Positions 11,241 to 14,291 of a stretch of 64,000 bases of DNA are shown here, one piece after another. The notes beneath the pieces are model-generated. The model worked only from the letters and a program-made list of their open reading frames with translations. It had not been told where the DNA came from and did no database searches. The translations under genes were made by a program, and so were the position numbers. The stretch comes from an uncultured Sulfitobacter sp. (GTDB lineage Bacteria; Pseudomonadota; Alphaproteobacteria; Rhodobacterales; Rhodobacteraceae), in NCBI GenBank assembly GCA_905182645.1, contig CAJJCJ010000014.1, positions 23,564 through 87,563 on the forward strand, written 5' to 3'. The number at the start of each line of letters is the position of its first letter. Position 1 is the stretch's first letter.

Positions 11241-11297
11241 ATGCGTCATGAAGTATTGGAGAAGGCAGTCGGGACAACTTGGGGTAAACTAACCTAA
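11241..11297 (+). CDS. Putative 18-aa small ORF MRHEVLEKAVGTTWGKLT in a structured intergenic transcript
   Basis: Near-perfect SD AAGGAGGTGAT just before ATG 11241, a TTGACT -35-like hexamer near 11177, and hairpins downstream. Confidence 0.4.
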   Translation: MRHEVLEKAVGTTWGKLT

Positions 11298-11364: not shown

Positions 11365-11396
11365 AGGGCCATCCCAACGCGGGGTGGCCCTTTTTG
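11365..11396 (+). terminator. Rho-independent terminator
   Basis: GGGCCATCCC-aacgc-GGGGTGGCCC stem followed by TTTTT. Confidence 0.8.
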
Positions 11397-11462
11397 TTGG
11401 AAAATGGCTGTATTTTTCGCGTAGTTTTTGCATAAGTTTCGCATATGCCGTTTAAGGGCGAC

Positions 11463-11876
11463 ATGAAAATCACCGATACCATCGAGATTGCGGATTGGGA
11501 GCTGACCGAGAGCTTTACCCGCGCGTCCGGCCCCGGCGGGCAGAACGTGAACAAAGTGTCCACGGCGGTGGAACTGCGGTTCGAGGCGGAGCGGTCGCCA
11601 AACCTGACGGCGGCGGTTAAAATCCGACTGCAGCGGATCGCGGGTCAGAAGTGGACGAAGGACGGCGCGATTGTGATCTTTGTGCAAGACACACGAAGCC
11701 AAGCCCGCAACCGCGAGTTGGCCCGCGAACGGCTATCGGAGATGATCGTGGCGGCCACGCATGTGCCCAAACGCCGCCGCGCGACGAAGCCGACCTATGG
11801 GTCTGTGAAGCGGCGGCTGGCAGGGAAGAAAGAGCGCGGGGAAGTGAAGAAGCTGCGGGGGAAGGTGGAGGAGTAA
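11463..11876 (+). CDS. arfB: Alternative ribosome rescue aminoacyl-tRNA hydrolase ArfB
   Basis: RASGPGGQNVNKVSTAVELRF (GGQ), RSQARNR, basic C-terminal tail RRRATKPT. Confidence 0.93.
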   Translation: MKITDTIEIADWELTESFTRASGPGGQNVNKVSTAVELRFEAERSPNLTAAVKIRLQRIAGQKWTKDGAIVIFVQDTRSQARNRELARERLSEMIVAATHVPKRRRATKPTYGSVKRRLAGKKERGEVKKLRGKVEE

Positions 11877-11910
11877 TTATGCCTCGCCGCCCAATGATTT
11901 TTTGCCGCAT

Positions 11911-12090
11911 GAAACCCATATCAAAATTGATCTCAGCTTTAGGGGGTTTCCTGACCGCCATTTGTATTCACCTACTGGGATACTGATTGCGGAATGTGTG
12001 TTGGTGACCTGATGGGAATTCGGGCTGCCTGCTGTTTGGTTAAGGCTGGTCGCGTTTTTTGCGCGCCAGGTTGCTGAGAGGTCAAGGAGA
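11911..12090 (+). ncRNA. Putative structured RNA (msr/msd-like template or translational switch) upstream of the small protein-RT pair
   Basis: Long-range complementarity between TTGATCTCAGC (11927-11937) and GCTGAGAGGTCAA (12073-12085). Nested TGACCT/AGGTCA (12005-12010/12079-12084), hairpin 12046-12069, and GAAACCC/GGGTTTC (11911-11917/11944-11950). Boundaries are uncertain. Confidence 0.4.
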
Positions 12091-12095
12091 CGATC

Positions 12096-12293
12096 ATGGA
12101 GAAATTTATTCTTTATGTCCGCCTGTTTCGCGAAGTTGTGTTGACTTCAGTTCTTGTCATTAAGTTGATCAAGCTGATTCATGACTTTGTGATTCCGGCT
12201 CTTAACTATGTGAGCAGATGTTTTGAAAAACTATTCAAGCAAAATTCCATTAGGCGCCGACAAGTTTGCATACGAACAAGTTCCTTCGTTTAA
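12096..12293 (+). CDS. Small hydrophobic protein (65 aa), candidate RT-associated effector
   Basis: SD AAGGAG at 12084-12089; hydrophobic/amphipathic N-terminal half and basic tail; overlaps the RT start by 71 nt. Confidence 0.55.
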   Translation: MEKFILYVRLFREVVLTSVLVIKLIKLIHDFVIPALNYVSRCFEKLFKQNSIRRRQVCIRTSSFV

Positions 12294-13002
12294 ATTACTC
12301 GGCGAGGCCCTTAGCAGTAGAATATATGATGCTTGGCAGCCGCCATCTATATTCTATCACCATCGGAACGGAGGGCACATTGCAGTCCTAGACAAGCATC
12401 TTCAGAGTGACACTTTTTCAAGATTCGATATCAGCCAGTTTTTCAATCGTGTCACGAAAAACAAAATCATCAAGGCCCTCAAGACATGTGGATTCAGCCT
12501 CATAAAAGCCAGCGAGGCCACTGCGCATTCAGTTGTAAAAACCGAGGCCGGATTTCATTTGCCCTACGGGTTTACACAATCTCCTGCTTTGGCTTCACTG
12601 TGTCTGAATCGGAGCCAAGCAGGGAAATTCCTAGGGAAGCTGGATAAGGATATTTTGGTCAGCGTTTATGTCGATGACATAATCTTGTCGCACAAAAATG
12701 ACCCAATAAAGCTACGGAAAGTCTCCGAAAGTTTAATCGAAACTTTTACGTCTGTTGGATTCCCAATTTCAGAAACTAGAAGTGTCATCGCCCAACCAAC
12801 CATAACTGCATTCAACATCGAGCTTCATAATAATTCGATGGCGTTAACCCCTGAAAGACTTATTGGGTTTCACAATCAGGTTATTGCTGGCTGGCAAAGT
12901 GACGATGTACTGGTTGGCATTTATAACTACGTACTATCGGTTAACGCTGCACAAGGTGCTGAGATAGAGCATGCCATTAGCCGCATGCAGTCCCACCGTT
13001 AA
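12223..13002 (+). CDS. Short reverse transcriptase (retron-like / defence-associated)
   Basis: RT motif A RFDISQFF (12421-12444), motif B LPYGFTQSP (12559-12585), catalytic YVDD (12667-12678). TTG start; AT-richer than neighbours. Confidence 0.88.
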   Translation: MKNYSSKIPLGADKFAYEQVPSFKLLGEALSSRIYDAWQPPSIFYHHRNGGHIAVLDKHLQSDTFSRFDISQFFNRVTKNKIIKALKTCGFSLIKASEATAHSVVKTEAGFHLPYGFTQSPALASLCLNRSQAGKFLGKLDKDILVSVYVDDIILSHKNDPIKLRKVSESLIETFTSVGFPISETRSVIAQPTITAFNIELHNNSMALTPERLIGFHNQVIAGWQSDDVLVGIYNYVLSVNAAQGAEIEHAISRMQSHR

Positions 13003-14291
13003 ACCACAACCTCAACCTCCTCTTGCTCACCGACTCCAAACACCCGTTTGTAGCGAGCGATTTCTTTGCTTGGGCCCATGGCTTTGTTTGGGTTGTCGCT
13101 GAGTTTTACGGTAGGGTTGCCGTTGGCTTGGATTGCTTTGCACACGAGGGAGAATGGTGCGAGGGCGTCGTTTTGGGTGAGCCCTTTGAAGTCGTTGGTC
13201 AGCATGGTCCCCCACCCGAATGACACGCGGCAGCGCCCTGCGAATTGGGATTGCAGTTCGACGATTTTATCAACGTCGAGCCCGTCCGAGAAGATGACCA
13301 GTTTCTTGGTCGGGTCTTCGCCACGGGATTTCCACCAGTTGATCGCTGTCTCGCCCCCCGTCGCCGGATCGCCGCTGTCGACCCTGATCCCTGTCCAGCC
13401 AGCGAGCCAATCGGGCGCGCCGTTCAGAAACCCTTGTGTCCCGTAGGTGTCGGGCAGGATGATGCGCAGGTTGCCGTCGTGTTCCGCCTGCCAGTCCGCC
13501 AGCACGTCGTAGGGGGCTTGCCGCAGGGCGTCGTCGTTTTCGGCCAGCGCCGCATAGACCATCGGTAATTCATGTGCATTGGTGCCGATGGCGGGGACTT
13601 CGCGGTTTTTGGCGATCAGGCAGTTGGAGGTACCGATGAATTTGTCGCCCAACCCTTCGGACATGGCCTGCACGCACCAGTCTTGCCACAGGTGGCTGTG
13701 CCTGCGACGGGTGCCGAAATCAGCGATGGCCAGTTCCGGCAGGGTGCGCAGGGTTTCAACCTTTTCCCAGACTTTGGTTTTGGCGCGTGCGTAGAGCACT
13801 TCGAGCTCGAACCGCCCCATGATTTCCAGCACGGCCCGCCCGCGCAGTTCCATCAGGACCGCAAGTGCCGGAATTTCCCAAAGCATGACTTCGGGCCATG
13901 ATCCCTCAAACGTCAGCTCGTATTGCCCATCGACCTTTTCAAGATGGTAGGGCGGCAAGCGCAGGTTTTCAAACCAGTCCATGAATTCGGGCGTGAACAT
14001 TTGCCGTTTGCCATAGAACGTGTTGCCGCGCATCCAAGTGGATTCCCCGCGCGAAAGCGACAGGGTTCGGATGTGGTCAAGCTGTTCGCGCAGTTCGCCC
14101 TCGTCGACCAGATCAGCCAGCCGGATATGTTTGGACCGGTTGATCAGGGAGAACGTAACTTGCGTGTCGGGTTTGTTGCGGAACACGGACTGACACATCA
14201 GCAATTTGTAGAAATCCGTATCAATGAGCGACCGCACAATCGGGTCGATTTTCCATTTGTGATTCCAAACGCGGGAGGCAATATCGACCAT
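12999..14291 (-). CDS. pncB: Nicotinate phosphoribosyltransferase
   Basis: SLIDTDFYKLLM, DFGTRRRHS, GTNAHE, RVDSGDP, IFSDGL, VKLSDN motifs. Confidence 0.95.
   Translation of the reverse strand: MVDIASRVWNHKWKIDPIVRSLIDTDFYKLLMCQSVFRNKPDTQVTFSLINRSKHIRLADLVDEGELREQLDHIRTLSLSRGESTWMRGNTFYGKRQMFTPEFMDWFENLRLPPYHLEKVDGQYELTFEGSWPEVMLWEIPALAVLMELRGRAVLEIMGRFELEVLYARAKTKVWEKVETLRTLPELAIADFGTRRRHSHLWQDWCVQAMSEGLGDKFIGTSNCLIAKNREVPAIGTNAHELPMVYAALAENDDALRQAPYDVLADWQAEHDGNLRIILPDTYGTQGFLNGAPDWLAGWTGIRVDSGDPATGGETAINWWKSRGEDPTKKLVIFSDGLDVDKIVELQSQFAGRCRVSFGWGTMLTNDFKGLTQNDALAPFSLVCKAIQANGNPTVKLSDNPNKAMGPSKEIARYKRVFGVGEQEEVEVVV

Follow-up and report, generated by a model that had tools for sequence, protein, structure and literature searches.

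A compact module of structured RNA, small protein and short reverse transcriptase in Sulfitobacter as a candidate new retron type

The window analyzed here, a stretch of 64,000 nucleotides (64 kb) of DNA from an uncultured Sulfitobacter sp., harbors a short reverse transcriptase (RT) gene between two host genes, arfB and pncB. The gene is preceded by a small ORF and a leader, and the question that it raises is whether this is the remnant of a larger element or a working unit and, in the latter case, to which of the known RT systems it belongs. An earlier note on this DNA had proposed a compact retron-like unit with a putative defense function. The proposal was examined by comparison with homologous loci, RT phylogeny, structure prediction and analysis of RNA covariation.

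Genomic Organization of the Locus

The module is 1.1 kb long (11877–13002) and comprises a folded RNA, a small protein (SP) and the RT. The genes of the locus and the Shine-Dalgarno (SD) sequence of SP are as follows.

11445–11876, plus strand: arfB, host gene and left flank of a variable slot; NCBIfam NF006718 above cut-off; matched in genus relatives
12085–12089, plus strand: SD of SP, −8.0 kcal/mol with the anti-SD 7-mer
12096–12293, plus strand: SP, 65 aa, with a conserved core (about 36–38 aa) ending in NY (12204–12209) and a variable tail; a predicted toxin
12223–13002, plus strand: RT, 259 aa, with D69 and YVDD at residues 149–152; start codon TTG at 12223, no SD of its own
12999–14291, minus strand: pncB, host gene and right flank; NCBIfam NF003704 above cut-off

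The NCBIfam matches confirmed the two flanking genes named in the earlier note. The SP ORF lies 219 nt from arfB and overlaps the RT by 71 nt, and the stop codons of the RT (13000–13002) and of pncB (12999–13001), on opposite strands, overlap as had been described. The G+C content of 11877–13002 is 44.6%, as against 62.3% in arfB and 57.7% in pncB, and the module forms the deepest G+C dip of the window; the earlier hand count of 22 G+C in bases 1–60 of the RT was reproduced, and the AT-richness relative to the neighbors holds. Neither a CRISPR array nor a close repeat pair was found within the 64-kb window, and none of its 65 ORFs is a cas gene, in agreement with the reported absence of cas genes, arrays and DGR repeat pairs.

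The same insert is present in the same arfB–pncB slot of two metagenome contigs at 98–99% identity, the only two copies found in the metagenome scan, so that it is not an assembly artefact. It was matched in none of 30 related genomes, and the flanks were matched in 18 of 18 genomes of the same genus. In relatives with both flanks on one contig, the slot measures about 0.46–2.0 kb and holds different cargo, forming a small hotspot. The cargo includes a TIGR04141 protein (L144), a Sll1717-family ATPase (L142), a GGDEF protein (L147) and, in L138, an AAA ATPase with weak defense-model matches.

Two further elements were observed upstream. An 18-codon ORF with a strong SD (11241–11297) lies downstream of a queuosine-precursor transporter gene and is followed by a terminator-like hairpin; this region matches Rfam CC2171 weakly, at 23 bits (cut-off 75). 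A REP-like element of 45–60 nt at about 11389–11453 has about 20 partial copies, at 78–100% identity, on many contigs of the genome.

The Reverse Transcriptase and Its Family

The RT contains the motifs FDISQFF, LPYGFTQSP and YVDD and matches Pfam RVT_1 above the curated cut-off (E 7.6e-14). It ends at 259 aa, its relatives being about 245–270 aa long, and a maturase extension is absent, which bears out its description as a stand-alone RT. The family profile matches one protein in the genome, namely, the RT at 12223–13002.

A word-indexed search revealed 50 RT relatives among 299 candidates, and a profile of 37 relatives retrieved, at E ≤ 1e-30, a total of 281 clusters made at 50% identity; nearly all of the top 150 were 245–270 aa in length. 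Loci were found in GTDB (146, of which 80 were kept) and IMG/VR (26), and the whole RT frame is present in 103 of 106. The family ranges over Proteobacteria, plasmids and P2-like prophages; it occurs in 34 of 5426 E. coli genomes, in 13 Klebsiella phage records and in three genomes from a sample of 400 other Pseudomonadota, a draw that also contained seven HTH-bearing type VI loci. One member of the 90% cluster of the RT is labeled Yoonia sp.

The catalytic residues D69, D151 and D152 are invariant (37/37 RTs), and [YF]xDD is present in 104 of 104 loci. The retron region X motif NAxxH was found in none of the 104; GGH-x6-H is present instead in 99, with its final His at the same place. Likewise, [VI]TG, corresponding to the retron region Y motif VTG, is seen in three of the 104 loci, and FN[IVL] occupies the aligned site in 88; VTG is also missing from some true retrons of the reference set. 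In the AlphaFold model (pLDDT 96.6) the RT fold is complete, with a short thumb and with the fingers β-hairpin as its first element, the region preceding the fingers in solved retron RTs being absent from the modeled N-terminus. Retron RTs took Foldseek ranks 1–13 and were also sequence matches 1–6 in the PDB.

The family RTs fit none of the defense-system models examined. For twenty of them, the highest score was 76.6 bits over the PADLOC retron models and 72.9 bits on RT_VI, on which seven loci with the order SP-HTH-RT scored 234–334 bits. The best UG/DRT model for the family gave about 38 bits, where true members of UG17, DRT6 and DRT9 exceed 500 bits. In the trees the family came together as a single clade with 100/100 support; its branch is long and falls between retron and non-retron RTs. 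Long branches met in the quick tree of 73 rows; the careful tree was built after removal of 14 rows from the reference set and 17 from the family, and the set contained no type IV RT. The AU test rejected joining the family to group II intron RTs (p 0.018), which was the grouping that would have spoken for a degraded intron; joining it to type VI (p 0.287) or to type I-B (p 0.413) was not rejected. On the phylogenetic check suggested earlier, then, no PADLOC retron or DRT model takes in the RT, a group II intron origin is rejected, and the tree cannot place the family. Judged by its sequence, the RT is retron-like with its type unplaced, and the family may be a fast-evolving offshoot of type VI.

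The Small Protein

Each of the 104 loci in which the RT frame is whole carries SP upstream of the RT, and in every one of 68 loci tested the RT start lies within the SP frame; the overlapping hydrophobic small ORF noted at 12096–12293 is therefore one that the homologues keep. A site of the form AAYTAY or AGCTAT occurs just before the RT in 101 of the 104 loci. An in-frame, SD-led ATG lies 28–52 codons (median 35.5) upstream of that site in 98 loci, and inspection revealed an SP-like ORF in the other six. The tail following NY is unconstrained (2–57 aa), and the RT starts 4–38 nt past the NY codons or, in some loci, inside them. A strong SD precedes SP in 61 of 68 loci and the RT in 8 of 68; in this computation the RT start of the window had been set at an upstream ATG that runs into a stop, the true start being the TTG at 12223. 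Fusion of SP to the RT via a fixed frameshift was ruled out, as among 101 loci the RT is read in frame +1 in 84 and in frame +2 in the other 17.

The core of SP has a basic start followed by an amphipathic-hydrophobic part, with a window-19 hydropathy of at least 1.6 in 48 of 72 loci. Indels within SP keep the frame, and the changes counted over 21 disjoint close pairs are 66 synonymous and 61 non-synonymous (neutral expectation about 1 to 3), a pattern which indicates that SP is coding and under purifying selection. No match to SP was found among Pfam, NCBIfam and PADLOC models; the ESM Atlas returned a single match at 0.80, which is chance level, and the family SP profile gave a best E of 0.023 against seven type VI SPs. 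In two loci (L035 and L038) the core is longer (93-aa ORFs) and has the same ends, suggesting that the helix tolerates in-frame extension.

The Leader RNA

The RNA extends from near 11930 to about 12208, into the coding sequence of SP. Its elements in the window, all on the plus strand, are as follows.

11930–11937, plus strand: 5′ arm of P1 (a1-like), pairing with 12073–12080; covaries over 72 loci; likely transcript start
11938–11943, plus strand: NNTAGG motif following P1; the A is invariant and both G are present in at least 90% of 30 aligned loci
11939–11992, plus strand: two msr-like hairpins in the fold of the window sequence
11946–11955, plus strand: alternative anti-SD pairing with 12081–12091, the ribosome-binding site of SP; the cognate duplex beats the non-cognate one in 65 of 72 loci
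11999–12072, plus strand: msd-like region, the predicted RT template, inside P1 and next to its 3′ arm
12037–12049, plus strand: 5′ strand of P4, in the msd-like region, pairing with SP codons at 12195–12208
12063–12071, plus strand: 5′ strand of P3, in the msd-like region, pairing with SP codons at 12121–12131
12073–12080, plus strand: 3′ arm of P1 (a2-like), supported by covariation

The structured leader of about 220 nt that had been proposed could be upheld only in part. In the window sequence alone, the fold is marginal (z −1.85, with 7 of 100 shuffles as good), and in a repeat search the inverted repeats do not stand out; the RNA also begins near 11930 and not at 11877. Comparison of homologues, on the other hand, showed a conserved RNA. 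The set comprised 72 loci after removal of near-copies, with the anchor of L009 and two start codons reset by eye and with L040 excluded, its leader being replaced. In L040 (about 1430–1630) an unrelated sequence takes the place of the leader upstream of the SD, and SP and the RT are intact and close to those of L041; the change may represent promoter loss or mis-assembly.

In the 72 non-redundant loci, an 8-nt arm preceding NNTAGG pairs about 140 nt downstream (median), just upstream of the SD, to form P1. The cognate pairing is better than the non-cognate in 72 of 72, five of the eight positions pair in every locus, and 36 compensatory double changes were counted on the branches of the RT tree, as against 0.05 per off-register pair. 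In P4, the codons at the end of the SP core pair with a T(G/A)GTT segment in the leader, the cognate pairing being better in 71 of 72 loci (28, 34 and 35 of 72 for three control pairs). The P3 pairing of the leader with SP codons 8–12 was favored in 57 of 72; covariation of P3 and of the anti-SD helix (57 and 65 of 72, mean z about −0.85) is weaker than that of P1 and P4. A pair-counting tool applied to 30 loci found 84.7% of cells paired, compared with 28–40% in slid controls, and 108 double-changed cells compared with 39 in the shuffled set. As P3, P4 and the anti-SD helix cross P1, they would represent alternative states or pseudoknots. Compared with synonymous shuffles, the SP codons are more strongly folded (median z −3.6; z < −1.64 in 67 of 72 loci), in contrast to the RT control (−0.1; 7 of 72). 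A profile of RNA and SP from 30 loci matched 73 of the 74 loci held out, each time directly upstream of the RT, and had no other match in 1.18 Mb that included type VI and other RT loci. It is this profile, along with the covariation of P1 and P4, that substantiates conservation of the leader RNA among homologues.

A TAnnnT box lies 5–7 nt before the first P1 arm in 43 of 72 loci, a spacing that places the start of transcription at P1. In the window no canonical box was seen at that spacing, and a promoter scan gave no plus-strand site before the RNA. Rfam returned only chance-level matches, none of them on the leader, and RNA-seq of an enterobacterial homologue showed flat depth in two contig runs, from which transcript ends could not be read. 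Retrons make msDNA from a 2′–5′ branch at a G, and the priming G of canonical retrons lies just after the closing stem; by this analogy, G11942 is a candidate priming (branch) G.

Neighbors, Mobile Context and Broken Copies

An HTH gene between SP and the RT was found in none of 104 loci, so that the lack of an HTH, first noted for the window, is family-wide. With a profile from type VI HTHs, an XRE-like HTH was detected in the fetched flanks of 10 of the 104 loci, at scattered positions and strands, and there was no match on the contig of the window. No conserved neighbor besides SP was found, the shared prophage backbone aside. In P2-like prophages (L176:3217–5083, L084–L098, L103, L105, and L106), the module is flanked by ogr and by the right end, which in E. 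coli E6 is at ssrA, and these copies have a longer template region, with a P1 span of about 170–190 nt. The accessory slots of P2 are described as defense hotspots (PMC13586616). Among 99 long flanking proteins scanned, out of 106 selected, 14 match PADLOC defense models at E ≤ 1e-30, including pAgo, Gabija, CBASS, AbiE and type IV restriction; one RmuC match was not counted. The 65 ORFs of the window gave one housekeeping cross-match to these models, a comparison that is not a matched control for the flanks. Judging from the P2 accessory slot and the neighbors matching defense models, a role in anti-phage defense is likely.

In six loci (L017, L039, L075, L103, L104, and L106), the RT is broken in its last third, SP is intact and arms or motifs of the RNA remain. 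The reverse case, a broken SP with a whole RT, was not encountered. Several of the 90% clusters also hold truncated RTs, and the broken copies could be assembly errors.

Comparison With Known Systems

Two features by which retrons are recognized are present, the three catalytic aspartates and an upstream ncRNA with a1/a2 arms and internal hairpins, and so is a feature of type VI, an SP coded within the same structured RNA as msr-msd (P3/P4 pairing and structured SP codons). A Cro/C1-type HTH gene next to the RT and the fit to the RT model, both expected of type VI, whose RTs make up Mestre clade 3, are lacking, as are two classical retron motifs.

According to the preprint on Retron-Vpa2, SP is untranslated there in the hybrid RNA, a dead RT is non-toxic, msDNA turns translation on even in trans, and the HTH restrains reverse transcription (bioRxiv 10.1101/2025.10.22.683967). 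Similar to that account of Vpa2, the family has one hybrid RNA containing msr-msd and the codons of a small hydrophobic protein, the 3′ part of which wraps back via an inverted repeat. Unlike in Vpa2 as described there, the wrap-back strand lies inside the SP codons, and the RNA is about 280 nt in length as compared to about 470. A Vpa2-like direct repeat gave no signal in the family (4.08 vs. 3.88 nt). With type VI at large the family shares YxDD, with V in some type VI members, and it differs from Vpa2 and type VI in having no HTH and an SP that overlaps the RT directly. Further deviations from type VI are an RT of about 250 aa (301–371 aa in type VI), a type VI model score that does not exceed 73 bits and no measured homology in RNA or SP sequence; the SPs of Vpa2 and Sen3 share almost no identity with each other. 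Since only about 78% of the listed type VI entries have an HTH gene, its absence alone is not decisive against type VI.

In Retron-Sen3, according to the preprint, SP is constitutive and the HTH is an antitoxin needed for viability (bioRxiv 10.64898/2026.04.27.721009). On the same account, Sen3 (cl2075 lineage) and the present family both have the ncRNA upstream of SP, RNA structure selected within the SP codons and a long-range IR1–IR2 pairing that spans the SP frame, starting in the 3′ part of the template hairpin. The differences are that IR2 follows the SP stop in Sen3 and precedes it here, and that SP measures 79 aa there, as against a core of about 36–38 aa here.

Of the canonical retrons, Eco1 (Ec86), Eco8 and Kva2 are the nearest solved RT structures (TM 0.67–0.78) and the nearest PDB sequences. 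The family resembles canonical retrons in its closing stem, internal hairpins and similar span (median about 140 nt). It differs from Eco1, Eco8 and Kva2 in having 15–18% identity, with GGH-x6-H and FN[IVL] replacing NAxxH and VTG, and from canonical retrons in that the effector is coded inside the RNA and not by a separate enzyme gene. With SP in every locus with a whole RT frame, a conserved RNA and no fitting PADLOC model, the earlier view of a compact unit of retron-like RT, RNA and small protein, similar to type VI without its HTH and possibly of an undescribed class, gains support.

Proposed Mechanism and Alternative Explanations

The RNA, SP and RT are co-conserved, P1 and P4 covary, the SP codons are structured, and the loci lie in mobile, defense-rich contexts. 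On balance, we lean toward the reading that these form a conserved two-gene unit, in which a structured RNA carries a retron-like template domain and an SP frame overlapping the RT, and which acts as an HTH-less abortive-infection system of the Vpa2 kind. The RNA fold would keep the predicted toxin SP untranslated until RT-made DNA builds up in phage infection. Retron RTs copy their RNA leftwards from the 3′ arm. Here, the RT would prime just after P1 and copy leftwards from about 12072 over roughly 60–110 nt. In its first 35–40 nt the cDNA would thus cover, as their complement, the leader strands of P3 and P4, whose pairing partners are SP codons. Either this DNA or the loss of its RNA template may then release the SP frame, the effect that msDNA has in Retron-Vpa2, and the freed SP could arrest or kill the cell via its amphipathic helix. 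As the RT has no SD and starts within the SP frame, its synthesis is presumably coupled to SP translation, which would create a self-amplifying switch, low at rest and rising after the flip. A low supply of RT, together with host nucleases degrading the cDNA, would replace the HTH brake of type VI, and the likeliest triggers, by analogy only, would be phage recombination or nuclease-inhibitor proteins. The occurrence of a broken RT with an intact SP in six loci, and of the reverse in none, fits an RT that is the trigger and is dispensable for neutralization, as in Vpa2.

One prediction of this scheme failed. The opening energy of the SP start window had a median of 10.0 kcal/mol, compared with 12.0 kcal/mol for 48 other genes (nested fold), and with the predicted template masked it fell by over 1 kcal in just 6 loci out of 36, the median change being 0.0. 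The test covered 36 of the 72 loci with a nested-fold model, which cannot hold crossing helices; within that model, repression of the ribosome-binding site and its release are unsupported. Only tentatively do we put forward the fuller proposal of a new retron type, the smallest (1.1 kb, 250-aa RT), functioning as a two-gene switch free of a protein brake, in which the RT would copy the strands that hold the toxin codons, translation of RT and toxin would be coupled, and the feedback would commit the infected cell to death.

The start of SP, which is not predicted to be unusually closed, and its strong SD would also suit a canonical or Sen3-like arrangement, in which SP is made constantly, held inactive by the complex of RT, RNA and DNA, and freed when phage damages the DNA or a host nuclease changes. 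SP is reported to be constitutive in Retron-Sen3, and the missing pre-fingers N-terminus of the modeled RT could leave a surface for a helix. We consider this arrangement unlikely, as the Sen3 antitoxin is an HTH, which is absent here, six loci combine SP with a broken RT, and the RNA pairings extend into the SP codons.

The RT start, without an SD and close to or within the NY codons, the free length of the tail and the loose sequence conservation of SP, the ends of which are fixed partly by RNA pairing, are what would be expected if SP were a regulatory leader peptide or membrane anchor and no toxin, its translation opening the RT start and the active product being the RT or its DNA. A basic N-terminus with an amphipathic hydrophobic helix kept under purifying selection goes beyond the needs of a leader peptide, however, and no other effector gene is conserved, so that this explanation appears less probable still.

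SP is, we presume, like type I toxins in size and hydrophobicity, and the module is frequent in prophages, plasmids and integrase-linked islands; it could accordingly be a selfish addiction or prophage-maintenance module, similar to a type I toxin-antitoxin with an attached RT, and not a phage defense. Retention of the catalytic residues of the RT in every locus, an RNA with retron-like closing arms, the frequent defense-gene neighbors and the location in P2 accessory slots, which are known defense hotspots (PMC13586616), make this improbable. A decayed group II intron or truncated retron remnant, to which the short RT and the weak scores on every model might point, is refuted by 281 clusters of uniform length, the invariant catalytic aspartates, a confident whole fold (pLDDT 96.6), the conserved SP and RNA and the rejected grouping with intron RTs.

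Prior Record and Significance

A member of this family has been on record since Simon and Zimmerly (2008), whose sequence file (PMC2602772) contains NP_806368.1, near-identical to the RT of L091. Its GI is not in two tree files of that article, and no RNA or partner is described in the parts consulted. At 257 aa the protein falls below the range of retron RTs given there, 265–658 aa. The SPIRE survey of Toro (2026) retained only RTs that reached 160 bits on a general retron model, and it stated that divergent lineages are likely under-represented. The table of Toro (2014) had no match for the family names tried, and the main text of Moura de Sousa (2026) does not mention RTs. The family is undescribed in the full-text literature covered, including Mestre (2020), myRT, DefensePredictor and the ART preprint; most subscription papers and bioRxiv supplements lie outside that coverage, and a prior listing is possible. 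On the strength of its sequence features, the family is a candidate new retron type.

If active, an RT of 250 aa with a template domain of 140 nt would be a compact candidate tool for ssDNA production. As a type VI design stripped to RNA, peptide and RT, the module would allow a direct test of whether RT-made DNA alone is the trigger of the riboregulator, a question left open by the Vpa2 and Sen3 preprints, and of what the HTH contributes. If the proposal is true, a widespread defense family, present in the P2-like prophages of E. coli and Klebsiella, has been missed by the PADLOC and NCBIfam models.
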